Virus record (IMG/VR): IMGVR_UViG_2526164634_000015
Location: 1 to 13,468 of that record
Source: a virus
Taxonomy: Duplodnaviria > Heunggongvirae > Uroviricota > Caudoviricetes
Length of the DNA stretch: 13,468 nucleotides
Strand: one strand, 5' to 3'
The notes under the pieces were generated by a model, which saw only the letters and a program-made list of their open reading frames with translations, did no database searches and was not told the DNA's origin. Shown here one piece after another: positions 1-13,468 of this stretch (positions are counted from its first letter, which is position 1; each line of letters begins with the position of its first letter). The translations under genes were made by a program, and so were the position numbers.

Positions 1-317
1 TCGTTGCCGGCGTTACCGATATGTGTAAATCCTTCAACGGACTGGGAGAACAGGTACAACATGTGCTGAATGATAATCCCTTCTCCGGTCACCTGTTTAT
101 CTTCCGTGGCCGACGGGGGGACACCGTTAAAATTCTTTGGGCTGATGCTGATGGTCTGTGCCTGTTCACCAAACGCCTGGAGGAAGGCCAGTTTATCTGG
201 CCTGCGGTGCGTGACGGTAAGGTATCCATTACCCGCTCGCAACTGGCAATGCTCCTCGATAAGCTGGACTGGCGTCAGCCAAAAACATCCCGCCTTAACG
301 CCCTGACAATGTTGTAA
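1..317 (+). CDS. tnpB: IS66-family accessory protein TnpB (orf2), 5'-partial at window edge
   Basis: Translation ...VAGVTDMCKSFNGLGEQVQHVLNDNPFSGHLFIFRGRRGD...LCLFTKRLEEGQFIWP aligns along its length with the second TnpB copy at 1963-2310 (roughly 65% identical by eye); the reading frame is open back to base 1. Confidence 0.85.
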   Translation, partial: VAGVTDMCKSFNGLGEQVQHVLNDNPFSGHLFIFRGRRGDTVKILWADADGLCLFTKRLEEGQFIWPAVRDGKVSITRSQLAMLLDKLDWRQPKTSRLNALTML

Positions 318-341
318 AAAACACCTGGCCGCATTATAAAA
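1..341 (+). mobile_element. Truncated IS66-family element: 3' part of tnpB only, no orf3 and no terminal repeat; ends where the next IS begins
   Basis: TnpB-like ORF runs in frame from the window edge to a stop at 317; only 24 bp follow before the GTAA terminus of the adjacent element at 342. The expected downstream transposase gene is absent. Confidence 0.6.
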
Positions 342-363
342 GTAAGCGGCTCGTCAGAACCGT
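342..363. repeat. Terminal inverted repeat of the IS66-family element (transposase-proximal end)
   Basis: Begins 5'-GTAAGCG, the start I recall as typical of IS66-family termini; pairs with 3019-3040. Confidence 0.7.
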
Positions 364-371
364 ATTGATAT

Positions 372-1943
372 TTACTGAGAGCTCAGATCAACTTTCCAGG
401 GCAACAGATCGCGTACCCGGTTTGCCGGCCAGTCCTGGATATGTTCAATGACGTAGCGCAGCCACTTTTCTGGCTCCACATTGTTCAGACGGCATGTGCC
501 GATCAGCGAGTACAACACCGCCGCATGTTCACCATCGCTGTCGGAACCCGCGAACATCCAGTTTTTCCGGCCTACGGCCACTCCCCGTAAGGCGTTCTCT
601 GCGATGTTGTTGTCGATTTCCACCCAGCCATTACTGCAGTACACGTTCAGTGCATCCCACTGTTTCAGCAGGTATGCGAACGCTTTTGCCGTATCTGAGT
701 GACGCGACAGTGTTTTCATCTGTTGCTGTATCCAGTCATACAGTGACTGCATCAGTGGCGCGGCTCTGGTTTTTCTTGCCGCCAGACGCTGTTCTGCTGA
801 ACAGCCCCGGACCTCTGCCTCGATGGCATACAGTTCACCGATACGCTGCAGGGCTTCCGTGGTGATGTCGGTGGGCGCTCTTGCATGCACATCGTGGATT
901 TTTCTCCGGGCATGAGCCATACACGCGGCTTCCGTTATTCTGCCGGATTCGTATAACGCCCGGTAACCACCGTAAGCATCGGCCTGAAGCACACCGCTGT
1001 AACCGGCCAGGTGATTTTGTGGATGGATACCTTTCCGGTCCGGACTGTACGCGAACCAGACCGCCGGGGGCATCTGTGAACCGGCGTTACGGTCATCACG
1101 GACGTAGACCCACAGCCGGGCTGTCCGGGTTTACCGCTGCCCGGCTCCTGGACCGGGACGGGGATATCATCAGCATGGACTTTACCGGGCATCAGCACAT
1201 ACTGGCGCAGGACGTCATACTGCGGCTCCAGTAGTTCAGCAACGGCACCAGTCCAGCGCCCCAGTGTGGCACGGCTCAGCTCCACACCCTGACGGCGGTA
1301 TATCTCTGACTGGCGGTATAACGGCAGATGGTCTGCATATTTTCCGGTGACGACATGGGCCAGGAGCCCCGCTCCGGCATAACTGCGTGCAATGGGTTTT
1401 GAAGGCACCGGTGCCTGCACGATATGGTCGCACCGGCAACAGGCCAGTTTCGGACGTTGTGTTTCGATAACCTTAAAGGCGCTGCTGATAAGCTCCAGTT
1501 GCTCTGACACATCACATCCCAGAGAACTGAGTTCACCACCACAGGCAGGACAGCATTCCTCTTCCGGTCCGGATAACCCGGGTTTCACGGGGAAGTGAGG
1601 CCGGTAACGGTTTACGGGCTGAAGACTGGCGCAGGGCGGATGGCAGTACCGGGTCATATTGCTCACCCAGCGTTTCCGCCATTTCTTCCTGAAGTGCGCT
1701 GATTCGCTCCTGTGCTTCCTGTATCTGCCGTTCGGTTTTTGCACGAAGTTTTTCTGAGCTTTTACCGAACTGCATACGTTGCAGTTTCGCAACCAGCACC
1801 TTCAGCCGGTTGATTTCGGAAGCATAAGCCGCCACCCGCTGTGAGAGCAGGCGGTTGTATTCAGCCATCTGGCGTATGGTGTCCTGTTGCGTCTGCAACA
1901 GTGCCCGCAGGCGGGCGTTCTCATGAGCAAGTGAGGTGTCCAT
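372..1943 (-). pseudogene. tnpC: IS66-family transposase (orf3/TnpC) split over three reading frames by two single-base indels
   Basis: N-terminal leucine-zipper segment (ORF 1533-1943: MDTSLAHENARLRALLQ...), zinc-finger and middle segment (inside ORF 935-1792: PEEECCPACGGEL...[16 protein letters not shown]) and DDE C-terminal segment (ORF 372-1073: [15 protein letters not shown]...) are consecutive parts of one transposase in three frames. Frame switches lie near 1555-1580 and 1095-1130. Confidence 0.8.
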
Positions 1944-1962
1944 ATCCTCACTTTACAACGGG

Positions 1963-2310
1963 TTATATGCGGATTCCAGCGCGTTCCGTTCGTTTCGGGT
2001 GCTTCCAGTTGATACCTTCAAGAAGCATGGATAACTGAGCCGGAGTAAGGTGCACCTTGCCGTCACGGGTGACTGGCCAGACGAAGCGGCCCCGCTCCAG
2101 GCGTTTGGTGAAGAGGCACAGTCCGTCACTGTCAGCCCACAACACTTTTATCTGGTCACCCCGGCGTCCGCGGAAGATGAACAGGTGTCCGGAGAACGGG
2201 TCATCCTTCAGGACGTTCTGAACTTTTGATGCCAGGCCGTTAAAACCATTTCGCATATCGGTGATACCGGCAACCAGCCAGATACGCGAACCGGCAGGGA
2301 GAGATATCAT
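1963..2310 (-). CDS. tnpB: IS66-family accessory protein TnpB (orf2)
   Basis: 115-aa ORF MISLPAGSRIWLVAGITDMRNGFNGLASKVQNVLKDDPFSGHLFIFRGRRGD..., a recognisable IS66 Orf2; start overlaps the tnpA stop (ATGA). Confidence 0.9.
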   Translation of the reverse strand: MISLPAGSRIWLVAGITDMRNGFNGLASKVQNVLKDDPFSGHLFIFRGRRGDQIKVLWADSDGLCLFTKRLERGRFVWPVTRDGKVHLTPAQLSMLLEGINWKHPKRTERAGIRI

Positions 2311-2987
2311 CAGTGGCTGCTCCCTTTCATTTCGCGGATAAGTGTCTGTAATAACGCCGGCGTCAGTTTACCTTTAAGCCTGAGAGTTCCGGCCGGCAGA
2401 ATCAGCTCACAACACAGACTGTCGGACGGTGTATTTATCTGCTCTGGTTCCTGTGCGGGGGCCGGGATTTTATTATCCGGCTCCGGCGTTAACGTCACGG
2501 GAAGCAGTACCGGCATATTTTTTCCGGAAGGCAGCAGGCCACCTTTCCGGTATTGATGGCGCCAGTTGAAGAGCAGGTTATCGTTGATTCCGTTTTCCCG
2601 GGCGATCTGCGCCACACAGGCTCCGGGCTGCAGTGACTGCTCCACTAAGGCGATTTTAAACTCATAAGGGAAGTTGGGCCGCCGGGGACGTTTTTTTATC
2701 ACGGGGGCTTCGGATATAACGGTGTTTTCAGGACGTACGACTGGTACCGTGGAAAATTGTCCGTAAAGGCAGGCATCAAGTTCCTGCTCCGACATGCCTG
2801 CGGGCAAAGGCCACGAAAGGCCAGCTCTCCGAAAGCGCACGAACATATTACAAACTGTTGATTTTGGTACACCCAGGCGACGCCCGGCCACAACCCGGGG
2901 TAAATGTTCTTCAAAGTGAAGACGTAAAGCTTCAGTGATCCAGGTCCGGTGTTTCATACGATAGTGTCCATTAAAAATGATGGACAT
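2310..2987 (-). CDS. tnpA: IS66-family accessory protein TnpA (orf1), long form with two helix-turn-helix-like regions; true start may be an internal Met
   Basis: C-terminal half (RPRRPNFPYEFKIALVEQSLQPGACVAQIARENGINDNLLFNWRHQYRKGG) looks like an IS66 Orf1 / IS3-type HTH; lies inside the IS about 53 bp from the 3040 terminus and is coupled to tnpB. Confidence 0.75.
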   Translation of the reverse strand: MSIIFNGHYRMKHRTWITEALRLHFEEHLPRVVAGRRLGVPKSTVCNMFVRFRRAGLSWPLPAGMSEQELDACLYGQFSTVPVVRPENTVISEAPVIKKRPRRPNFPYEFKIALVEQSLQPGACVAQIARENGINDNLLFNWRHQYRKGGLLPSGKNMPVLLPVTLTPEPDNKIPAPAQEPEQINTPSDSLCCELILPAGTLRLKGKLTPALLQTLIREMKGSSH

Positions 2988-3018
2988 TATTTTTGTAGAG
3001 CCGGAGGAAACAGACCAG

Positions 3019-3040
3019 ACGGTTTAAATGAGCCGGTTAC
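3019..3040. repeat. Terminal inverted repeat of the IS66-family element (tnpA-proximal end)
   Basis: ...AGCCGGTTAC ends at 3040; its reverse complement starts GTAACCGGCTC and pairs with 342-363. Confidence 0.7.
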
Positions 3041-3051
3041 GATAAATATCC

Positions 3052-3585
3052 ATGAACACCAAAATCAAATACGGCCTGTCGGCTGCCGTTCTGGCGCTGA
3101 TTGCCGCTGGTGCGTCTGCGCCTGACATTCTCGATCAGTTTCTGGATGAAAAGGAAGGCAATCACACCACGGCATACCGTGATGGTGCAGGTATCTGGAC
3201 CATCTGCCGTGGTGCCATCATGGTGGATGGCAAACCTGTCGTTCCGGGCATGAAGTTGTCGAAGGAAAAATGCGACCAGGTTAACGCCATTGAGCGTGAT
3301 AAAGCGCTGGCGTGGGTGGAGAAAAACATCAAAGTGCCATTGAGCGAACCCCAGAAAGCGGGGATCGCGTCATTCTGTCCGTACAACATTGGTCCCGGTA
3401 AGTGTTTCCCGTCGACGTTTTATAAACGAATTAATGCAGGTGATCGCAGGGGAGCGTGTGAGGCGATTCGCTGGTGGATTAAGGACGGTGGCAGAGACTG
3501 CCGTATTCGTTCAAACAACTGCTACGGTCAGGTATCCCGTCGTGACCAGGAGAGCGCGCTGGCGTGCTGGGGTATCGACAGATAA
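3052..3585 (+). CDS. Phage endolysin, T4-lysozyme-like (GH24) with an N-terminal signal-anchor-release (SAR) type hydrophobic segment
   Basis: 177-aa ORF; N-terminus MNTKIKYGLSAAVLALIAAGASAP is a weakly hydrophobic Ala/Gly-rich segment; E-x8-D-x5-T catalytic spacing in EGNHTTAYRDGAGIWT; followed by Rz/Rz1 as in lambdoid lysis cassettes. Confidence 0.9.
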   Translation: MNTKIKYGLSAAVLALIAAGASAPDILDQFLDEKEGNHTTAYRDGAGIWTICRGAIMVDGKPVVPGMKLSKEKCDQVNAIERDKALAWVEKNIKVPLSEPQKAGIASFCPYNIGPGKCFPSTFYKRINAGDRRGACEAIRWWIKDGGRDCRIRSNNCYGQVSRRDQESALACWGIDR

Positions 3586-3675
3586 GCAGAATATTTTGCT
3601 GAAAAATAAAGCATGGCCACGCGGGCGGATAACATGAAATCCTGCGAACTGGCGAAACGTAAGTGAATAAAAGTA

Positions 3676-3712
3676 AAAACCCCGTTTGTTGGCACCAAGC
3701 GGGGTTTTGTGT
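3676..3712 (+). terminator. Intrinsic (rho-independent) terminator downstream of the endolysin gene
   Basis: AAAA-CCCCGTTTG-(loop)-CAAGCGGGG-TTTTGTGTTT: GC-rich stem of about 9 bp followed by a T-run, with an A-run upstream so it could act in both directions. Confidence 0.6.
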
Positions 3713-3744
3713 TTCCTGACTCCGGAAAAGTCAAAGGAGAAAGT

Positions 3745-3882
3745 GTGTTTGATTTTAGCAAACTGATTCGGGAGATTCGAGTGATGGCTGAAAAATTATC
3801 CACCTGGAAGTTCATTCTTATCTGGCTGGTGTTTGTGATTATGGCCTCCGGTTATTTCATCGGTCAGATACGCTGGTGGTGA
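3745..3882 (+). CDS. Small predicted single-pass membrane protein (45 aa from GTG 3745, or 32 aa from ATG 3784), stop overlapping the Rz start region
   Basis: AGGAG at 3734-3738 lies 6 nt before the GTG; translation [45 protein letters not shown] has one hydrophobic helix; its TGA (3880-3882) is 1 nt before the Rz ATG (3884). Too short to appear in the ORF track. Confidence 0.35.
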
Positions 3883-3883
3883 A

Positions 3884-4348
3884 ATGAACCGCGTACTGTG
3901 CGTAGTCATCATTGCCCTGCTGGTGGCCTGTGGTGCGCTTAGTCTGGGGCTGAATCATTACCGTGATAACGCCATTACCTACAAAGCCCAGCGCGACAAA
4001 AATGTCAGAGAACTGAAGCTGGCGAACGCGGCAATTACTGACATGCAGATGCGTCAGCGTGATGTTGCTGCGCTCGATGCAAAATACACGAAGGAGTTAG
4101 CTGATGCGAAAGCTGAAAATGATGCTCTGCGTGATGATGTTGCCGCTGGTCGTCGTCGGTTGCACATCAAAGCAGTCTGTCAGTCAGTGCGTGAAGCCAC
4201 CACCGCCTCCGGCGTGGATAATGCAGCCTCCCCCCGACTGGCAGACACCGCTGAACGGGATTATTTCACCCTCAGAGCGCGACTGATAATAATGCAAAAA
4301 CAACTTGAAGGGGCACAGCTATACATTCGAGAGCAATGCCTCAGATAA
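3884..4348 (+). CDS. Rz: Spanin inner-membrane subunit Rz (i-spanin)
   Basis: 154 aa; N-terminal TM helix ([20 protein letters not shown]) then a charged coiled-coil-like region; contains the embedded Rz1 frame; follows the endolysin. Confidence 0.85.
4104..4286 (+). CDS. Rz1: Spanin outer-membrane lipoprotein subunit Rz1 (o-spanin), embedded in the +1 frame of Rz
   Basis: 60 aa; signal peptide with lipobox (LVVVGC) and Pro-rich mature part (PPPPPAW...PPPDW); entirely inside Rz in another frame, the classic Rz/Rz1 arrangement. Confidence 0.8.
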
Positions 4349-4655
4349 AAACCGGCCAAGGATAATCCGCTGAAGATTCGCCGGTGGCTAAAGTGTGCCA
4401 AGAGTTCAATTTACGCAATTACTCCAGTCGATGCTATGCACCGTCTTTGTGAAGTCAATGGATACCTGATTTATTTCTGTGCGCTGTATCGTCGCTGTAC
4501 TCTTGCATTAATTATGACTGTAGCCTGACGGGGAACTCCTTCTGCACAAGTGTGGGGGAATAATCAAAAACGATGCACACCGGGGTTACCGGGTACACAT
4601 ATTTCATCATGCCAGCGAGTCCGGTTCTGGCACGGAAGAAACCGGACGTTATGAT

Positions 4656-5081
4656 TTAGTGCGGAAATATTTGTGTAGTGTTCTGAATGTTCTCAGTAAA
4701 GAGTAATGAATTATCAAAGGTATAGTAATACCTTTTGTTTTCGTGGATATTTGTAATCCATCTGAAAACCCCTGCTGTAGCAAGATTTTTCCTGTATTCG
4801 TAAAATGATAACTCTCCTGATTTGAATCCTTTTAAGGTGGCTTCTATAAGGCATTTATTTTTTGAAAATCTTACATTTACAACCTTACCCTGTCCTTTTA
4901 TTAAAACCGTATTATCGTTTTCAAGAACAAGATGAATATTCTCTGTGGCTAAATAGTAAATGTAATGTGAGACATTGTGACGTTTTAGTTCAGAATAAAA
5001 CCAGTGATAGTTTAAATTATTTCGCACTTTATCGAATATTTGTTTAAAAATGGCAACCTGAGCCATTGTAGTACCTTCCAT
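4656..5081 (-). CDS. AT-rich moron gene; hypothetical protein, tentatively DUF1398 family (YbcV/YdfO-like) from memory
   Basis: 141-aa ORF in a segment of about 33% GC (by eye), far below neighbouring phage genes; position between Rz1 and cos/terS matches where I recall ybcV/ydfO-like genes in E. coli K-12 cryptic prophages. Start may be the internal Met (MAQVAIF...). Confidence 0.6.
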
Positions 5082-5123
5082 GTGATATGAGGGGGCGTAG
5101 TCTGCACGATTATCTAAATTGCT

Positions 5124-5357
5124 TCAATCTGGTCTGACCTGTTTTCTGAGCAATTCAGTAATGTCACTCTTTTCTTTGTTTGCTTCAGGCGAAACTCTTT
5201 TTACTGAGCACAGTCTCCGGCGGCAGGCTTCAATGACCCAGGCTGAGAAATTCCCGGACCCTTTTTGAACAAGAGCGATGTTAATTTGTTCAATCATCTG
5301 GTTTGGAAATCGGATGTTGCGGGTTGTTGTTCTGCGGGTTCTGTTCTTTGATGACAT
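5124..5357 (-). CDS. Small ribbon-helix-helix-like protein, tentatively DUF3950 family (YlcI/YnfO-like) from memory
   Basis: 77-aa ORF with a basic N-terminus followed by TRNIRFPNQMIEQINIALVQKGSGNFSAWVIEACRRRL, an RHH-like strand-helix-helix pattern; co-oriented 42 bp upstream of the 141-aa gene. Confidence 0.55.
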   Translation of the reverse strand: MSSKNRTRRTTTRNIRFPNQMIEQINIALVQKGSGNFSAWVIEACRRRLCSVKRVSPEANKEKSDITELLRKQVRPD

Positions 5358-5563
5358 AATGTTTCCCCATATTCAGTGTTGCTGATTTGTATTATCTGAA
5401 GTTGCTTTTACGTTAATTTGACGCAGATCAATCAATACGATACCTGCGTCATAATTGATTATTTCTCGTGGTTTGATGGCGTACACACATGTTGTGATAA
5501 ACCTTATATAGATGATAATCATTATCATTTCGTGGGTCCTTTCCGGCGATCCGGGCCGTTACG

Positions 5564-5575
5564 GGGCGGCGACCT
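5564..5575 (+). other. cosN cohesive-end sequence (12-nt GGGCGGCGACCT) of a lambda-type cos site
   Basis: 5358-5608 reads like the junction of the lambda right and left genome ends (...GATGATAATCATTATCA...CCGTTACG | GGGCGGCGACCT | CGCGGGTTTTCGCTATTTATGAAAATTTTCCGG) as I recall them, immediately upstream of the small terminase gene. Confidence 0.85.
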
Positions 5576-5758
5576 CGCGGGTTTTCGCTATTTATGAAAA
5601 TTTTCCGGGATCCATGTCCGGTTTCTCTTCAAGTTAACTATATGAAAAATATAAAAACAGGTCTTCTGTGAACCGGACATGAACAAAAAACAGACATGTA
5701 AACCGGACATGACCGGTTTTGTTGTGATTGTGAGGTGAGAGTTTTTGCGAGGTGAGGA
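5576..5758 (+). promoter_or_regulatory. cosB-like terminase binding region: one inverted and two direct copies of an AACCGGACATG motif flanking an A/T-rich candidate IHF site
   Basis: CATGTCCGGTT at 5613-5623 (inverted), AACCGGACATG at 5671-5681 and 5701-5711 (direct, 30 bp apart), A/T-rich stretch 5631-5660 between the inverted and direct copies; parallels the lambda R3-I1-R2-R1 layout with a different motif. Confidence 0.65.
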
Positions 5759-6268
5759 GTGGCTACGCAGACTGAAGTTGCCAGGCATTTAAGTCTGACC
5801 GATCGCCAGCTTCGCAGATTGCAGAAATTGCCGGGTGCCCCGATATCGAATAAGCGAGGGCAACTGGATCTGGATGCCTGGCGCGATTTTTACATATCGT
5901 ATCTGAGGAGAAGTAAAAACGATGTGCCTGATGGCGATAGCGAAGACGACTATGAGGAGAAATTGCTTATTGCCAGATGGGAACTGACAGCAGAACAGGC
6001 TGTTACACAGCAGTTAAAAAATGAGGTGTCAAAAGGAAAACTTATTGACACCGGGTTCTGTATTTTTGCCCTCAGTAAGCTGGCAATGGCGTTATCCAGT
6101 ACGCTTGATTCCATCCCTTTATCCATGCAGCGACAGTTTCCTGATTTAACACCGCGCCATCTTGACCATCTGAAAACCCTTATTGCGAAGGGGGCAAATC
6201 AGTGTGCGCGGGCAGGGGATAAATTACCGGATTTACTCGATGAATATATCAGAGCAACAACTGAATAA
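5759..6268 (+). CDS. Terminase small subunit (Nu1-like DNA-recognition subunit), GTG start
   Basis: 169 aa; N-terminal HTH-like TQTEVARHLSLTDRQLRRL; sits directly after cosB and overlaps the terL start by 29 nt, as Nu1/A do in lambda; GAGG 6-7 nt upstream of the GTG. Confidence 0.75.
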   Translation: MATQTEVARHLSLTDRQLRRLQKLPGAPISNKRGQLDLDAWRDFYISYLRRSKNDVPDGDSEDDYEEKLLIARWELTAEQAVTQQLKNEVSKGKLIDTGFCIFALSKLAMALSSTLDSIPLSMQRQFPDLTPRHLDHLKTLIAKGANQCARAGDKLPDLLDEYIRATTE

Positions 6269-8167
6269 TATGGTGGCCGCCGTTTCGGTTGCGCTGCAGC
6301 CTCTGGTCAGGGTTGTACCGATGACGGCAGTTGAATGGGCTGACCAGTATTATTATCTGCCGAAAGAATCCTCATACGGTGACGGCGAATGGAAAACGCT
6401 GCCGTTCCAGATCGCCATCATGAACAGTATGGGGAATGATCAGATCCGCACTGTTAATCTGATTAAATCTGCCCGTGTTGGCTATACAAAGATGTTGCTG
6501 GGAGTCGCCGGGTATTTTATTGAGCATAAATCCCGAAACAGTCTGCTTTTTCAGCCCACGGATTCTGCCGCTGAAGATTTTATGAAGTCTCACGTGGAGG
6601 CGACGATTCGGGACGAGCCATGCCTGAAAGATCTTTCCCCGTGGCTGGGTCGTAAACATCGTGACAATACTCTCACGCTGAAACGCTTTTCATCGGGGGT
6701 GGGCTTCTGGTGCCTGGGTGGTGCGGCAGCAAAAAACTACCGTGAAAAATCCGTGGACGTGGTCTGCTATGACGAACTTTCCTCGTTCGAGCCGGATGTC
6801 GAAAAAGAGGGCTCGCCAACCCTGCTGGGGGATAAGCGTATTGAGGGCTCGGTATGGCCAAAATCCATTCGCGGCTCGACGCCTAAAATAAAAGGCTCCT
6901 GCCAGATCGAAAAAGCGGCCAACGAGTCGGCGCATTTCATGCGTTTTTATGTGTCCTGCCCGCACTGTGGGGAGGCGCAGTATCTGAAATTTGGCGATGA
7001 GTCCACGCCTTTTGGCCTTAAATGGGAGAAGGACAGCCCCGAAAGCGTTTTCTACCTCTGTGAACATCATGGCTGCGTGATCCATCAGTCTGAGCTTGAC
7101 CAGAGCAACGGGCGGTGGATCTGCGAAAACACGGGCATGTGGACCCGCGACGGTCTGACGTTTTTCAGCGCCCGGATAATGAAATTCCGCCGCCGCGCTC
7201 CATCACATTTCATATCTGGACGGCGTACAGTCCGTTCACCACCTGGGTACAGATTGTCTATGACTGGCTGGATGCACTGAAAGATCCCAACGGCCTGAAA
7301 ACCTTTGTGAACACCACGCTGGGCGAGACCTGGGAAGAGGCCGTGGGCGAAAAACTCGATCACCAGGTGCTGATGGATAAGGTTGTGCGTTACACGGCTG
7401 CGGTGCCTTCCCGGGTGGTTTATCTGACGGCGGGCATTGACTCGCAGCGAAACCGTTTTGAGATGTATGTCTGGGGATGGGCTCCGGGAGAGGAAGCCTT
7501 TCTGGTGGATAAAATCATCATTATGGGGCGTCCCGATGAGGAAGAGACGCTGTTACGTGTGGATGTGGCGATCAACAAAAAATACCGCCATGCAGACGGA
7601 ACCGAAATGACCATTTCCCGTGTCTGCTGGGACACCGGGGGGATCGATGGCGAAATTGTCTATCAGAGGTCAAAAAAACACGGTGTTTTCCGGGGGCTGC
7701 CGGTAAAAGGTGCATCTGTTTATGGCAAGCCGGTGATCACCATGCCAAAAACCCGCAATCAGCGGGGCGTGTATCTGTGCGAAGTGGGGACGGACACCGC
7801 AAAAGAAATTCTCTATGCCCGTATGAAAGCCGATCCCACGCCTGCGGATGAAGCCACGTCGTATGCCATCCGTTTTCCTGATGATCCGGAGATTTTTTCG
7901 CAGACAGAGGCGCAGCAACTGGTGGCGGAAGAGCTGGTGGAGAAGTGGGAAAAAGGAAAGATGCGTCTGCTGTGGGATAACAAAAAGCGGCGTAACGAAG
8001 CGCTGGACTGCCTGGTGTATGCCTACGCGGCATTACGTGTGTCCGTGCAACGCTGGCAGCTTGATCTGGCTGTACTGGCAAAATCCCGGGAAGAAGAGAC
8101 GACCCGGCCAACCCTGAAAGAACTGGCAGCGAAGCTGTCCGGAGGAGTGAATGGTTACAGTCGCTGA
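6240..8167 (+). pseudogene. A: Terminase large subunit (lambda gpA-like), interrupted by a -1 frameshift near 7170-7175
   Basis: ORF 6183-7280 (real start MNISEQQLNNM at 6240) matches the gpA N-terminal half as I recall it (TAVEWADQYYYLPKES..., GYTKMLLGVAGYFIEHK, KRFSSGVGFWCLGGAAAKNYREKSVDV); ORF 7115-8167 in another frame continues with ITFHIWTAYSPFTTWVQIV...KRRNEALDCLVYAYAALR. One base appears missing in the GCCCGG run around 7170-7175. Confidence 0.85.
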
Positions 8168-8357
8168 ACTGCAGGCGCTGCGTCAGGCGCGCCTTGATTT
8201 ATTAACCGGTAAACGGGTGGTGTCTGTCCAGAAAGATGGTCGCAGAATTGAATATACGGCGGCTTCTCTGGATGAGCTTAACCGGGCGATCAATGATGCG
8301 GAGTCGGTACTGGGGACAACCCGACGTCGCCGTCGTCCGCTGGGAGTGAGGTTATGA
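8151..8357 (+). CDS. W: Head completion / head-tail joining protein (lambda gpW-like)
   Basis: 68 aa, MVTVAELQALRQARLDLLTGKRVVSVQKDGRRIEYTAAS..., close to lambda W as I recall it; stop overlaps the portal start. Confidence 0.85.
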   Translation: MVTVAELQALRQARLDLLTGKRVVSVQKDGRRIEYTAASLDELNRAINDAESVLGTTRRRRRPLGVRL

Positions 8358-9946
8358 AACGAACGCCTGTCCTGATTGATGTGAACGGCGTTCCGCTTCG
8401 TGAGAGTCTCAGCTACAACGGGGGCGGCGCAGGATTTGGCGGGCAAATGGCGGAGTGGTTGCCACCGGCGCAGAGTGCCGATGCAGCCCTGCTGCCTGCG
8501 TTGCGTCTGGGGAATGCCCGGGCAGATGATCTGGTGCGCAATAACGGAATAGCGGCTAATGCGGTGGCCCTGCATAAGGATCACATTGTCGGGCATATGT
8601 TTCTGATCAGCTACCGTCCGAACTGGCGCTGGCTGGGGATGCGGGAGACCGCAGCAAAAAGCTTTGTCGATGAGGTGGAGGCGGCCTGGTCGGAATACGC
8701 AGAAGGGATGTCTGGCGAGATCGACGTGGAAGGAAAACGCACATTTACGGAGTTTATCCGTGAAGGTGTTGGCGTTCATGCGTTTAACGGCGAAATCTTT
8801 GTGCAGCCGGTCTGGGATACGGAAACCACGCAGTTATTCCGTACGCGTTTTAAAGCCGTGAGTCCGAAACGGGTGGACACGCCAGGACACGGTATGGGGA
8901 ACCGTTTTCTGCGGGCCGGGGTGGAGGTCGATCGATATGGCCGTGCCGTTGCGTACCATATCTGTGAGGATGATTTTCCTCGCTCCGGGAGTGGACGATG
9001 GGAACGGATCCCGCGTGAACTTCCCACCGGGCGTCCGGCCATGCTGCATATTTTCGAGCCGGTGGAGGACGGGCAGACCCGTGGGGCCAATCAGTTTTAC
9101 AGCGTCATGGAACGGCTGAAGATGCTCGATTCCCTGCAGGCAACACAGCTTCAGTCGGCCATAGTGAAGGCGATGTATGCAGCGACGATTGAAAGTGACC
9201 TTGATACCGAAAAGGCCTTTGAATATATCGCCGGCGCGCCACAGGAGCAGAAGGATAATCCGCTTATTAATATTCTGGAGAAGTTCTCCAGCTGGTATGA
9301 CACGAATAACGTGACACTGGGCGGTGTCAAAATTCCGCACCTTTTCCCTGGTGATGATCTGAAACTACAGACTGCGCAGGATTCAGACAATGGATTTTCG
9401 GCGCTTGAACAGGCGCTGCTGCGGTATATCGCCGCCGGTCTTGGCGTTTCCTACGAACAGTTGTCCCGGGATTACTCGAAGGTCAGTTATTCAAGTGCCC
9501 GCGCCTCCGCCAATGAGTCGTGGCGCTATTTTATGGGACGACGAAAATTTATTGCGTCCCGGCTGGCCACGCAGATGTTTTCCTGCTGGCTGGAAGAGGC
9601 ACTTCTTCGGGGGATTATTCGTCCGCCACGGGCGCGTTTTGATTTTTATCAGGCGCGATCAGCCTGGTCACGGGCTGAGTGGATTGGAGCCGGAAGAATG
9701 GCCATTGACGGGCTCAAGGAGGTTCAGGAATCGGTGATGCGCATTGAGGCCGGACTGAGCACGTATGAGAAAGAGCTGGCGCTGATGGGCGAGGATTATC
9801 AGGACATTTTCCGCCAGCAGGTCAGGGAATCTGCAGAGCGGCAAAAAGCCGGACTCTCACGTCCGGTGTGGATAGCGCAGGCGTATCAGCAGCAGATAGC
9901 GGAGAGTCGCAGGCCGGAAGAGGAGACAACACCCCGTGAGACGTAA
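8354..9946 (+). CDS. B: Portal protein (lambda gpB-like)
   Basis: 530 aa, collinear with my recollection of lambda gpB over the whole length (GGGAGFGGQ..., NARADDLVRNNG, FEPVEDGQTRGAN, LQSAIVKAMYAATIES, GRMAIDGLKEVQE); no frame disruption. Confidence 0.9.
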   Translation: MKRTPVLIDVNGVPLRESLSYNGGGAGFGGQMAEWLPPAQSADAALLPALRLGNARADDLVRNNGIAANAVALHKDHIVGHMFLISYRPNWRWLGMRETAAKSFVDEVEAAWSEYAEGMSGEIDVEGKRTFTEFIREGVGVHAFNGEIFVQPVWDTETTQLFRTRFKAVSPKRVDTPGHGMGNRFLRAGVEVDRYGRAVAYHICEDDFPRSGSGRWERIPRELPTGRPAMLHIFEPVEDGQTRGANQFYSVMERLKMLDSLQATQLQSAIVKAMYAATIESDLDTEKAFEYIAGAPQEQKDNPLINILEKFSSWYDTNNVTLGGVKIPHLFPGDDLKLQTAQDSDNGFSALEQALLRYIAAGLGVSYEQLSRDYSKVSYSSARASANESWRYFMGRRKFIASRLATQMFSCWLEEALLRGIIRPPRARFDFYQARSAWSRAEWIGAGRMAIDGLKEVQESVMRIEAGLSTYEKELALMGEDYQDIFRQQVRESAERQKAGLSRPVWIAQAYQQQIAESRRPEEETTPRET

Positions 9947-11440
9947 TCTTTCACACATTATTGCCGCAGCATTCAATGAACCGCTGCTTCTGGAGCCCGC
10001 CTATGCGCGGGTTTTCTTTTGCGCGCTCGGGCGCGAGATGGGGCAGCAAGTCTTTCGGTACCACAGCAGCAGGTACAGCTTGATGCTCCCGGAATGCTGG
10101 CTGAAACGGACGAGTACATGGCCGGAGGTAAACGACCGGCCCGTGTTTACCGGGTGGTGAACGGTATTGCTGTACTGCCGGTGACCGGCACGCTGGTGCA
10201 CCGGCTGGGGGGTATGCGGCCATTTTCCGGAATGACAGGCTATGACGGTATTGTCGCCTGTCTTCAGCAGGCAATGGCGGATAGCCAGGTGCGGGGCGTA
10301 CTGCTGGACATTGACAGTCCGGGCGGGCAGGCCGCCGGCGCGTTTGACTGCGCTGACATGATTTACCGCCTCCGTCAGCAGAAGCCGGTCTGGGCACTGT
10401 GCAATGACACGGCCTGTTCTGCAGCCATGCTGCTGGCATCGGCCTGCTCCCGACGGCTGGTTACCCAGACATCCCGTATCGGCTCCATTGGCGTGATGAT
10501 GAGCCATGTCAGCTATGCCGGTCATCTGGCGCAGGCCGGTGTGGATATCACGCTGATTTACTCAGGGGCGCACAAGGTGGATGGCAATCAGTTTGAAGCC
10601 TTACCGGCAGAGGTTCGCCAGGACATGCAGCAGCGCATTGATGCGGCGCGCCGGATGTTTGCCGAAAAAGTGGCGATGTTTACCGGTCTGTCTGTTGATG
10701 CCGTCACGGGAACAGAGGCCGCCGTTTTTGAAGGTCAGTCCGGCATTGATGCCGGGCTGGCGGATGAATTAGTCAATGCGTCGGATGCCATCAGTGTGAT
10801 GGCCACGGCGCTGAACAGTAATGTCAGAGGAGGCACTATGCCGCAATTAACTGCAACGGAAGCCGCCGCGCAGGAGAACCAGCGAGTGATGGGGATCCTG
10901 ACATGCCAGGAAGCGAAAGGACGTGAACAGCTTGCCACGATGCTGGCAGGACAACAGGGCATGAGCGTTGAACAGGCCCGGGCGATTCTGGCCGCGGCGG
11001 CACCGCAGCAGCCGGTGGCATCCACGCAGAGTGAAGCCGATCGCATTATGGTGTGTGAAGAAGCGAACGGTCGTGAACAACTGGCGGCAACGCTGGCGGC
11101 GATGCCGGAGATGACGGTGGAAAAAGCCCGCCCGATCCTGGCTGCTTCACCGCAGGCGGATGCCGGACCCTCACTCCGTGATCAGATCATGGCACTGGAT
11201 GAGGCAAAAGGGGCTGAGGCGCAGGCTGAACAGCTGGCTGCCTGCCCGGGAATGACTGTGGAGAGCGCCCGGGCTGTGCTGGCTGCGGGATCAGGTAAGG
11301 CAGAACCGGTCTCTGCATCCACAACCGCCCTGTTTGAACGCATCATGGCGAACCATTCACCGGCTGCGGTACAGGGTGGCGTGCCACAGACGTCAGCAGA
11401 CGGTGATGCGGACGTGAAAATGCTCATGGCCATGCCATGA
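9936..11440 (+). pseudogene. C: Head maturation protease / scaffold (lambda gpC-Nu3-like, S49 peptidase family), -1 frameshift near 10040-10075; C-terminal scaffold-like part holds three protein-level repeats
   Basis: GTG start at 9936 gives ...LSHIIAAAFNEPLLLEPAYARVFFCALG (gpC-like N-terminus) and then runs into a stop; the rest of gpC (VNGIAVLPVTGTL..., LDIDSPGG, PVWALCND, SIGVMMSHV) is in ORF 10019-11440 in another frame. Confidence 0.8.
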
Positions 11441-11476
11441 AGTCAGTGCTGACCATCAACAGGAGGTTTTTACAAT

Positions 11477-11824
11477 ATGGTGACGAAAACTATCACTGAA
11501 CAGCGTGCGGAAGTACGTATTTTTGCCGGTAATGATCCGGCTCATACCGCCACAGGCAGCAGCGGGATTTCCTCGGCAACACCGGCACTGACGCCCCTGA
11601 TGCTGGATGAAGCCACCGGGAAACTGGTGGTCTGGGACGGACAAAAAGCCGGTAGTGCGGTTGGCATACTGGTACTGCCGCTTGAAGGCACAGAGACGGC
11701 GCTGACCTATTACAAGTCGGGGACCTTTGCGACGGAGGCAATCCGCTGGCCTGAAAGTGTGGATGAACACAAAAAGGCCAATGCCTTTGCCGGCAGTGCC
11801 CTGAGTCACGCGGCGCTGCCGTAA
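11477..11824 (+). CDS. D: Head decoration protein (lambda gpD-like)
   Basis: 115 aa; DPAHTATG...TPLMLDEATGKLVVWDG...VGILVLP...YYKSGTF resembles lambda gpD as I recall it; AGGAGG 10 nt upstream of the ATG. Confidence 0.85.
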   Translation: MVTKTITEQRAEVRIFAGNDPAHTATGSSGISSATPALTPLMLDEATGKLVVWDGQKAGSAVGILVLPLEGTETALTYYKSGTFATEAIRWPESVDEHKKANAFAGSALSHAALP

Positions 11825-11831
11825 CACGTTA

Positions 11832-11851
11832 TCAGGCCACCGCGGTGGCCT
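11832..11851 (+). other. Perfect 20-bp palindrome (CAGGCCACCGCGGTGGCCTG) in the D-E intercistronic region; candidate RNA stem-loop
   Basis: The sequence is its own reverse complement; sits 8 nt after the D stop and 30 nt before the E start; no T-run follows, so more likely a processing or stability element than a terminator. Confidence 0.4.
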
Positions 11852-11881
11852 GACTGATTTCTGAATGAAAGGAACTGATTT

Positions 11882-12913
11882 ATGGGATTGTTTACGACCC
11901 GCCAGTTACTCGGTTATACCGAACAAAAAGTGAAATTTCGTGCGCTGTTTCTGGAGCTGTTTTTCCGCCGTACGGTGAATTTCCATACCGAAGAGGTGAT
12001 GCTGGACAAAATTACCGGAAAAACGCCGGTGGCGGCCTATGTCTCCCCGGTTGTTGAAGGAAAAGTGCTGCGTCATCGCGGTGGTGAAACCCGCGTGTTA
12101 CGTCCGGGCTACGTCAAGCCGAAACACGAATTTAATTACCAGCAGGCGGTTGAGCGTCTTCCCGGTGAAGAGTCCGGCTCAGCTGAACGACCCGGCCTAC
12201 CGTCGTCTGCGTATCATCACTGATAACCTCAAACAGGAAGAGCACGCCATTGTCCAGGTGGAAGAAATGCAGGCGGTGAATGCCGTGCTGTATGGCAAAT
12301 ACACGATGGAAGGAGACCAGTTCGAGAAAATTGAGGTCGATTTTGGCAGGTCGACGAAGAATAACATCACTCAGGGTAGTGGTAAGGAGTGGTCAAAAAC
12401 AGGATCGTGACACGTTCGATCCTACACATGATCTTGACCTACTACTGCGACCAGGCCAGCGGTCTTGTGAATATTGCCATTATGGACGGTACCGTCTGGC
12501 GTCTGCTGAATGGCTTTAAATTGTTCCGCGAAAAACTGGATACCCGTCGCGGCTCTAATTCGCAACTCGAAACAGCGGTGAAAGACCTGGGCGCGGTGGT
12601 GTCCTTCAAAGGGTATTACGGCGATCTGGCCATTGTGGTGGCAAAAACGTCTTATGTGGCAGAGGACGGTACCGAAAAACGTTATCTGCCTGAGGGCTCG
12701 CTGGTCCTGGGGAATACGGCAGCAGAGGGCATTCGTTGCTATGGTGCCATTCAGGATGCGCAGGCGTTGTCCGAAGGTGTGGTGGCCTCTTCCCGTTATC
12801 CGAAACACTGGCTGACGGTAGGGGATCCCGCCCGTGAATTTACCATGACGCAGTCCGCGCCGCTGATGGTGTTGCCGGACCCGGATGAGTTTGTGGTGGT
12901 ACAGGTGAAATAA
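11882..12913 (+). pseudogene. E: Major capsid protein (lambda gpE-like) interrupted by three +1 single-base insertions (about 12173, 12395, 12440) that together restore the original frame
   Basis: Segments in four ORFs (11882-12223, 12039-12410, 12280-12519, 12389-12913) each match consecutive stretches of gpE as I recall it (KPKHEFNYQQ..., DPAYRRLRII...VEEMQAV..., DTFDPTHD, ...KLDTRRGSNS...SRYPKHWLTVGDPAREFTMTQSAPLMVLPDPDEFVVVQV). Confidence 0.85.
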
Positions 12914-12918
12914 TCCGT

Positions 12919-12950
12919 GAGCGGGGGCGAAATGCCCCCGTGTCTTTTTT
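12919..12950 (+). terminator. Stem-loop with T-run directly after the capsid gene; candidate intrinsic terminator or attenuator
   Basis: GCGGGGGC-GAAAT-GCCCCCG followed by TGTCTTTTTTC, between the E stop and the FI start. Confidence 0.45.
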
Positions 12951-12964
12951 CACAGGGGGATGAT

Positions 12965-13339
12965 ATGGCAACGAAAGAGCAAAATCTGAAACGGTTTGAT
13001 GAACTGGCCCTGATTCTGGGGCGTGAGCCGGATATATCCGGGAGTGCCGCAGAGATAGCGCAGCGGGTGGCAGAATGGGAAGAGGAAATGCAGTCATCCG
13101 GCGATGATGTACAGGTTATGAATATGGATATCCGGGAGAGGGAAAACGCGGCTCATGATGTTCGTGAGGAAACATCCGGCGCGTTAACGCGCATCAGAGT
13201 TCTGACCTGCCTCCATCTCTGTGGCGTTGATGGTGAAACGGGGGAATCCGTTGAGCTTGCGGATGTTGGTCGGGTGATTCTGATTATGTCCTCAGATGCA
13301 AAAACACACGTTGATGGTGGAATGGCTGTTTATGCGTGA
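12965..13339 (+). CDS. FI: DNA packaging protein (lambda gpFI-like)
   Basis: 124 aa from the ATG at 12965 (GGGGGA RBS-like run just upstream); acidic protein in the gpFI position between E and FII; sequence similarity to lambda FI is weak, so the call rests mainly on synteny. Confidence 0.6.
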   Translation: MATKEQNLKRFDELALILGREPDISGSAAEIAQRVAEWEEEMQSSGDDVQVMNMDIRERENAAHDVREETSGALTRIRVLTCLHLCGVDGETGESVELADVGRVILIMSSDAKTHVDGGMAVYA

Positions 13340-13468
13340 TTTTCAGAATGCCTTTGATGCCGCCCTTGCCGGGGTGGACAGTACGATTGTTGAAGTGATG
13401 GGCATCAGTGCGCAGTTCACCTCCGGTGCACAGCGTGGCGGCGAAGTTCAGGGGGTTTTTGACGATCC
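13332..13468 (+). CDS. FII: Head-tail connector protein (lambda gpFII-like), 3'-partial at window edge
   Basis: ATG at 13332 overlaps the FI stop; translation MRDFQNAFDAALAGVDSTIVEVMGISAQFTSGAQRGGEVQGVFDD parallels the N-terminus of lambda FII as I recall it. Confidence 0.7.
   Translation, partial: MRDFQNAFDAALAGVDSTIVEVMGISAQFTSGAQRGGEVQGVFDD

Follow-up and report, generated by a model that had tools for sequence, protein, structure and literature searches.

Insertion sequences of the ISCro1 type are known from several settings. In the attaching-effacing pathogen Citrobacter rodentium ICC168, ISCro1 is present in 24 copies, and IS copies, which are concentrated on prophages and islands, were tied to large-scale rearrangements (PMC3072379). 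The locus described here carries an IS of the same family and name, but the ICC168 work concerns finished genomes, whereas ours concerns one draft contig, in which a real rearrangement is only a possibility. The closest arrangement is found beside efa1/lifA in two complete E. coli genomes, O111:H2 12A (CP077479, ~4.833 Mb) and FDAARGOS_1059 (CP066032), where an ISCro1 copy is nested within an ISEc23-like element. ISCro1-type insertions also occur in lambdoid lysis cassettes of STEC and other E. coli, upstream of the holin in CP074961 and downstream of Rz in CP042878. Like the IS studied here, these copies belong to the same type (98.8%) and lie in the same kind of target region, with CP074961 also sharing the orientation relative to the lysis genes. 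Unlike it, they are simple insertions with phage DNA on both sides and perfect 8-bp duplications (GGATAACG and GTTTTTAC), and none lies at position -11 of the endolysin.

The window, that is, the whole stretch of DNA analyzed (13,468 bp), is from end to end AIHD01000037.1, a low-quality contig of the draft assembly GCA_000250275.2. The features on which the argument depends are as follows.

1..317, plus strand: tnpB gene, 3′ portion, from an ISEc23-like element of the IS66 family (Pfam TnpB_IS66, E=3.5e-30)
318..341, plus strand: tnpB–tnpC spacer of the ISEc23-like host element (24 bp; compared with empty and filled sites)
342..3040, minus strand: complete insertion sequence of the IS66 family, ISCro1 type (2,699 bp; identity to labelled copies, terminal inverted repeats)
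372..1943, minus strand: tnpC, the DDE transposase gene, split into three ORFs (Pfam LZ_Tnp_IS66, zf-IS66, DDE_Tnp_IS66, DDE_Tnp_IS66_C)
1963..2310, minus strand: ISCro1 tnpB, intact (Pfam TnpB_IS66, E=4.7e-40)
2310..2987, minus strand: ISCro1 tnpA, intact (Pfam HTH_Tnp_1, HTH_23)
3041..3051, plus strand: native prophage sequence just 5′ of the endolysin gene (uninterrupted prophages read ...CCCTGATAAATATCCATG)
3052..3585, plus strand: phage endolysin (lysozyme) gene (Pfam Phage_lysozyme)

A sequence-only reading of this DNA had taken the first IS66-family element to be truncated at its 5′ end. Since the window is the entire draft contig, this apparent truncation is merely the contig edge and has no biological meaning; the first 34 nt of tnpB are absent because the contig begins there, and the gene runs to its stop codon at 315–317. 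Biologically, the element is broken by an IS on its 3′ side, in the interval separating tnpB from tnpC. The tnpB part is 100% identical to WP_000624681.1, which is encoded beside efa1/lifA in 12A, FDAARGOS_1059, and O157 strains. Bases 1–341 share 96.8% identity over 341 bp with an element whose transposase carries the PGAP label 'ISEc23 family', and they comprise the 3′ end of tnpB followed by the tnpB–tnpC spacer, as expected for such an element; the name ISEc23-like is thus taken from a PGAP-labelled element rather than from an ISfinder reference. The TnpB proteins of the two elements are only 67% identical in amino acid sequence and therefore represent two distinct IS66-family elements, as the earlier reading had recognized. 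We also considered that the contig might start at a repeat boundary, which was unsupported, the 5′ region of this ISEc23-like element being single-copy on the 12A chromosome. That the contig start coincides with no obvious chromosomal repeat boundary in 12A counts against the exchange of flanks proposed below.

The second element had been described as complete and oppositely oriented, and its coordinates, minus-strand genes, and Pfam domains were all confirmed. It has the IS66 gene order tnpA–tnpB–tnpC with an IS66-type DDE transposase, although tnpC is split by two indels. Members of the IS66 family are recognized by imperfect terminal inverted repeats starting with GTAAGCG (ISfinder and the IS66 literature). 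The terminal repeats of 342–3040, GTAAGCGGCTCGTCAGAACCGT and GTAACCGGCTCATTTAAACCGT, match at 17 of 22 positions, and both the left end (GTAAGCGG...) and the right end (reverse complement, GTAACCGG...) have the expected GTAAGCG start. The IS termini are thereby placed precisely on the contig. The element shares 99.85% identity with the island copy and 98.8% with further copies bearing the PGAP label 'IS66-like element ISCro1 family'; these PGAP-labelled copies (98.8–99.85% over 2,699 bp) served as a proxy for an ISfinder reference in naming it. Its tnpA stretch has zero nucleotide differences from the island copy, and over the full length of the IS 27 of 27 variant positions are of the island type. 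In the strains concerned, ISCro1 occupies 13–14 places per chromosome.

The 8-bp flanks of this element are unequal, TTATAAAA at 334–341 and GATAAATA at 3041–3048, in agreement with the earlier observation that a target-site duplication is missing. Because the duplications are perfect in three other copies of the same IS, their absence here reflects the history of the window copy and not its family membership. The two junctions differ in origin. Bases 1–3040 are 99.8% identical to the efa1/lifA-island arrangement of FDAARGOS_1059 and 12A, which shares with the window the 341/342 junction, the orientation, and the octamer TTATAAAA. This octamer, the last 8 bp of the spacer, is the target of the nested insertion: the empty site in O157 PV15-279 reads CGCATTATAAAAACGGCCATG, and in FDAARGOS_1059, where the site is occupied, the IS is bordered at each end by TTATAAAA. 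The same arrangement occurs in the island, and the left junction is therefore an ancestral nested-insertion site present in two complete E. coli genomes, not a product of deletion. The sequence-only reading had itself named a known composite of 1–341 and 342–3040 as evidence against a deletion, and for bases 1–3040 the nested arrangement, which recurs in complete genomes, is evidence of that kind. A search of GTDB representative genomes for the 341/342 junction gave no match. The difference lies 3′ of the IS, where 12A and FDAARGOS_1059 have the duplicated TTATAAAA and the host tnpC, whereas the window has GATAAATA and the prophage endolysin gene. Thus, only the 3040/3041 junction is new.

On the right, the IS indeed ends 11 bp before the endolysin start codon, the ATG being at 3052, and GATAAATATCC-ATG is native phage sequence. 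A lambdoid late region begins with the endolysin gene and reaches the contig end. Bases 3041–8250 are essentially identical (3 differences in 5.2 kb) to a 12A prophage at 1.915 Mb, whose module has holin, ydfR, and lysozyme intact and is without an IS; in its head-gene half, the source prophage is nearer to other strains (99.1%) than to 12A. The holin gene and ydfR, which stand upstream of the endolysin gene in all intact relatives, are absent from the contig. In 12A, the closest complete genome, 2.9 Mb separate the island from the matching prophage, and the two are co-oriented. This argument from orientation and distance leans on 12A, and the source chromosome may be arranged differently. Scans of the junction region for promoters, terminators, and Rfam families gave no matches, and a repeat scan gave only short matches at chance level. 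Three fragments of the frameshifted transposase and one of the terminase, looked up as exact proteins, had no match on record; the N-terminal TerL fragment led to AIHD01000037.1.

We consider it very probable that 342–3040 carries the flanks of two different, ordinary ISCro1 insertions joined through the IS body. One of these (site A) is the ancestral insertion, which sits between the tnpB and tnpC genes of the ISEc23-like element by efa1/lifA and has the duplication TTATAAAA. The other (site B) would be a second insertion 11 bp upstream of the endolysin gene of a lambdoid prophage, with the target GATAAATA, and 3041–3048 is presumed to be its 8-bp target. The contig would then consist of the left flank of A, a shared 2.7-kb IS body, and the right flank of B, and such a join explains why no target-site duplication is visible. 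The flanks behave as this model predicts on the left, where TTATAAAA matches the site A duplication; on the right, where GATAAATA is native, a match to a site B duplication is plausible. We infer that copy B, with a duplication of its own, exists or formerly existed. The suggestion of an IS–IS recombination made by the sequence-only reading fits these two insertion sites, in contrast to the local adjacent deletion within the prophage that it offered alongside.

Several searches bear on copy B. The 3040/3041 junction was found in none of the complete E. coli genomes and in no viral or metagenome contig. Viral contigs and GTDB representative genomes likewise gave no hit for the reciprocal ydfR/IS junction. 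Overall, neither ISCro1 at this endolysin site nor the reciprocal junction occurred in any complete E. coli genome, viral or metagenome contig, or GTDB representative. That copy B appeared in no collection searched counts against an exchange. So does an IS body without internal polymorphisms that mark a crossover, a crossover point having been sought there in vain among the 27 variable positions.

Where the exchange between A and B took place is likewise a matter of inference. It may have occurred in the assembler, by a chimeric path through a repeat of ~13 copies with a left anchor of only 341 bp, a possibility to which we give close to an even chance. Like known repeat-collapse chimeras, the contig spans a multi-copy repeat that exceeds the assumed read lengths, has a short (341-bp) anchor, and is of poor consensus quality. 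Alternatively, and with a lower but still substantial probability, RecA-type homologous recombination between the two copies may have occurred in the cell; the outcome would be an inversion or a translocation, or a phage genome in circular form would have integrated into the island. Between artefact and recombination in the cell, we lean slightly to artefact. In a further variant, which seems unlikely, the join would be a true one and the efa1/lifA island would have captured the genome, or just the late region, of a lambdoid phage via two ISCro1 copies; here, an excised circular phage with ISCro1 before its endolysin gene would recombine or form a cointegrate with the island copy.

Two other explanations are less probable. 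According to the sequence-only reading, an adjacent deletion mediated by a resident IS66 element removed Q, the late promoter, and the holin gene between that element and the endolysin gene. The missing holin and ydfR and the absent target-site duplication are in keeping with such an event. The left neighbor, however, shows 100% identity to the ISEc23-like IS in the efa1/lifA island, where exactly this junction and target octamer occur, and this variant resides in an efa1/lifA or nleE island, not in a prophage, at 4 of 4 loci (12A, FDAARGOS_1059, FORC 064, and O157 PV15-279). The first IS is thus island rather than prophage DNA, and an adjacent deletion requires flanks that were originally close on the same replicon, whereas in the two complete relatives that share the left junction the flanks lie megabases apart and co-oriented. 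The related prophage in 12A, of the kind that the sequence-only reading proposed for defining a deleted segment, retains holin, ydfR, and endolysin and lies 2.9 Mb away from the island. A local deletion is therefore extremely improbable and largely refuted already. Given this distance of 2.9 Mb and the shared orientation of island and prophage in 12A, it is more likely that holin, ydfR, and the late-promoter region are not deleted but lie at the other IS copy elsewhere, or that the join is an assembly artefact.

A single step could also have sufficed if the tnpA-proximal end of the island ISCro1 had transposed intramolecularly into GATAAATA, in a deletion- or cointegrate-type event with no prior second copy. 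The right junction coincides exactly with the end of the IS, the window IS is of the island-type variant throughout, and a simple insertion of ISCro1 at the endolysin site was found in no genome, all of which suit this model. With the two loci co-oriented and megabases apart in 12A and FDAARGOS_1059, however, a deletion-type product would lose 2.4–2.9 Mb, and the concern about an artefact remains under this model as well. The IS66 family is not known to transpose by a replicative or cointegrate pathway. We regard such a one-step origin as improbable, and the joining of two ordinary insertions through their IS bodies as the better account.

The transposase frameshifts reported by the sequence-only reading are present, but its suggestion that they leave the element immobile is unsafe. 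They consist of a 1-bp deletion in a T run at ~1128–1130 and a 1-bp insertion at 1568, of which only the former lies in a homopolymer context. Neither indel was found in ~5,800 ISCro1-like places of 5,426 complete genomes, and private 1-bp indels likewise break the terL, S49 protease, and capsid genes of the contig, all three of which are intact in four relatives. The uniqueness of the tnpC indels and the similar private frameshifts in these phage genes make consensus or sequencing errors the likely cause of both. That the frameshifts are real and inactivating, so that this copy is an immobile relic, is doubtful. Both are carried by the deposited sequence, and the indel at 1568 lies outside a homopolymer run; against this stand, besides the genome survey and the broken phage genes, the 99.9% identity of the element otherwise to intact copies and its indel-to-substitution ratio of 2:2.

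Two points of method follow. An absent duplication together with pseudogenes in a short draft contig over a multi-copy IS needs read-level support before it is taken for biology, and the "truncation" at the window start is a contig end. As for the biology, the locus is an ordinary IS, with a piece of a pathogenicity island on one side and a prophage lysis gene on the other. If the capture of a phage genome or late region into the island were true, phage lysis and morphogenesis genes would lie beside lymphostatin, flanked by directly repeated ISCro1 copies. At most, the locus would represent one further IS-mediated rearrangement in an IS-rich EPEC-type genome, and as such it matters little.

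The window opens on the 3′ part of one IS66-family element, which abuts a second, oppositely oriented element ending just before a prophage endolysin gene.

Features of the window.
1–317: 3′ part of tnpB (Pfam TnpB_IS66) of an ISEc23-like IS66-family element, stop codon 315–317
318–341: 24-bp spacer after tnpB
342–3040: ISCro1-type IS66-family element, 2,699 bp
372–1943, minus strand: tnpC of the ISCro1-type element
1963–2310, minus strand: tnpB of the ISCro1-type element
2310–2987, minus strand: tnpA of the ISCro1-type element
3052: endolysin ATG, 11 bp beyond the IS end
4656–5486, minus strand: DUF1398 gene, ynfO/DUF3950-like gene and 37-aa ORF, between Rz and the small terminase

Bases 342–3040 are 98.8–99.85% identical to copies in complete E. 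coli genomes carrying the PGAP label "IS66-like element ISCro1 family", and bases 1–341 show 96.8% identity to an element with a transposase that PGAP annotates as "ISEc23 family"; both names follow PGAP labels of similar copies. The terminal inverted repeats of 342–3040 are imperfect (GTAAGCGGCTCGTCAGAACCGT / GTAACCGGCTCATTTAAACCGT, 17/22 positions matching). With 67% identity between their TnpB proteins, the two are distinct elements of the IS66 family, as the sequence-only reading had proposed; its coordinates for both elements and for the endolysin start were also correct.

The window is identical end to end to draft contig AIHD01000037.1 (assembly GCA_000250275.2; 13,468 bp). Because it is a complete draft contig, the first element, described earlier as 5′-truncated, is instead cut off by the contig end, 34 nt inside its tnpB. 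The upstream part of the ISEc23-like element is single-copy on the chromosome of E. coli O111:H2 strain 12A (CP077479) and gives no reason for a contig break; a plasmid-borne copy of this element or a coverage gap is a possible cause.

The left junction (341/342) has close counterparts in complete genomes. In FDAARGOS_1059 (CP066032) and 12A, the same ISCro1 copy lies at the same nucleotide and in the same orientation between tnpB and tnpC of an ISEc23-like element, directly downstream of efa1/lifA, and window 1–3040 aligns to this locus with 99.8% identity. There, the IS lies between two copies of TTATAAAA, the 8 bp to its left in the window (334–341), with ACGGCC-ATG of the host tnpC coming next; the empty site in O157:H7 PV15-279 reads CGCATTATAAAAACGGCCATG. 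These loci show the left junction to be ancestral: ISCro1 inserted cleanly into another IS and left the 8-bp duplication that this family is expected to make. Perfect 8-bp duplications also surround two further ISCro1 copies (GGATAACG and GTTTTTAC). Thus, 1–341 and 342–3040 do belong to a known composite arrangement at this junction, an outcome that the sequence-only reading had named as arguing against a deletion. In FORC 064 (CP022664; comparison locus L022, 5318–8190), ISCro1 lies in the same efa1-adjacent element 148 bp further in, within tnpC, so that the host IS seems to have taken an insertion at a different position in that strain.

The right junction (3040/3041) is new. The 8 bp at 3041–3048 are GATAAATA, which differ from TTATAAAA, in agreement with the earlier remark that a target-site duplication is lacking. 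GATAAATATCC-ATG is native phage sequence, and uninterrupted prophages read CCCTGATAAATATCCATG. Across window 3041–8250 there are just 3 differences from a 12A prophage located at 1.915 Mb, in which holin, ydfR and lysozyme are all intact and no IS is present. The IS-end/endolysin junction occurred in 0 of 5,426 complete E. coli genomes and was not found in viral or metagenome contigs; the reciprocal junction was not found in viral contigs or GTDB representative genomes.

The IS also differs from the island copy at four positions, and further single-base indels private to the contig lie in the phage genes.

Differences of the window IS from the island copy, and private indels elsewhere.
535: C>T
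~1128–1130: one T lost
1568: extra T
1798: G>A
7173: 1-bp indel, terL
10040: 1-bp indel, S49 protease gene
12172 and 12350–12441: single-base indel(s), major capsid gene

A four-site probe covering ~5,800 places in 5,426 genomes recovered no copy with any of the four IS differences, the best match being 98.4% of 244 nt, equivalent to four differences. The phage indels split the large terminase into ORFs 6240–7280 and 7307–8167, leave the S49 head protease shortened and divide the major capsid gene among three ORFs. In 12A, and in three independent contigs with the same portal protein, each of these genes is intact. With ~6 private frameshifts in 13.5 kb, and indels about as numerous as substitutions in the near-identical parts, the frameshifts point to consensus error. 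The suggestion that two transposase frameshifts may have immobilized the IS is therefore not justified.

How, then, did the IS acquire mismatched flanks? Its left side is half of the target duplication at the efa1/lifA island, and its right side apparently half of a duplication at a second site, in the prophage. We consider it very probable that the flanks arose when two ISCro1 copies exchanged partners across the 2.7-kb body they have in common, whether in vivo or in silico. Of the two mechanisms proposed earlier, IS–IS recombination fits flanks that are halves of two sites. A local deletion within the prophage, between the first IS and the endolysin gene, is highly improbable, since the DNA to the left belongs to the island and its junction is ancestral. 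One-step intramolecular transposition is also unlikely.

Given an exchange, an assembly artefact has nearly an even chance. An arbitrary assembler path is plausible because these strains have 13–14 ISCro1 places per chromosome, the element presumably exceeds the read lengths of such an assembly, and the left anchor of the contig is 341 bp only. Real recombination in vivo is a somewhat weaker candidate. Homologous recombination between inverted ISCro1 copies would produce an inversion. In 12A, however, the island copy (4.833 Mb) and the prophage locus are oriented alike with respect to the window, as they are in FDAARGOS_1059, and recombination between direct copies 2.4–2.9 Mb apart would split the chromosome, so that a real event on a 12A-type backbone would need another mechanism, for example recombination between the island copy and an ISCro1-bearing phage genome excised as a circle. 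The mosaic make-up of the source prophage makes this argument from orientation less secure: beyond the part near-identical to 12A, 8250–13468 diverges by 1–8%, this head-gene half reaching 99.1% identity to other strains (strain C3 and others) versus ~97% to 12A, and 13087–13318 (gpFI region) has no megablast match to 12A. The opposite-strand block at 4656–5486 is moron-like and conserved in relatives.

IS insertions are frequent in the lysis region of these prophages. The holin–endolysin–Rz region in other E. coli (loci L001, L002, L009 and L013) repeatedly bears IS elements: ISCro1 occurs either upstream of holin or downstream of Rz, an IS21-family element likewise lies upstream of holin, and an ISEc8-like element separates holin from endolysin. 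The pattern suggests an IS hot spot, or else a place where insertions are tolerated.

The structure of the IS66 family, the nesting of IS insertions, the expansion of ISCro1 on prophages and islands, and rearrangements associated with IS elements in attaching-effacing pathogens are established; C. rodentium ICC168 has 24 ISCro1 copies (PMC3072379). Nothing seen here falls outside these known kinds: the deposited sequence bears the observation out, but its explanation is ordinary and may be artefactual. ISCro1–ISCro1 recombination that brought a phage genome into the efa1/lifA island is improbable and, even if real, would be only modestly interesting.
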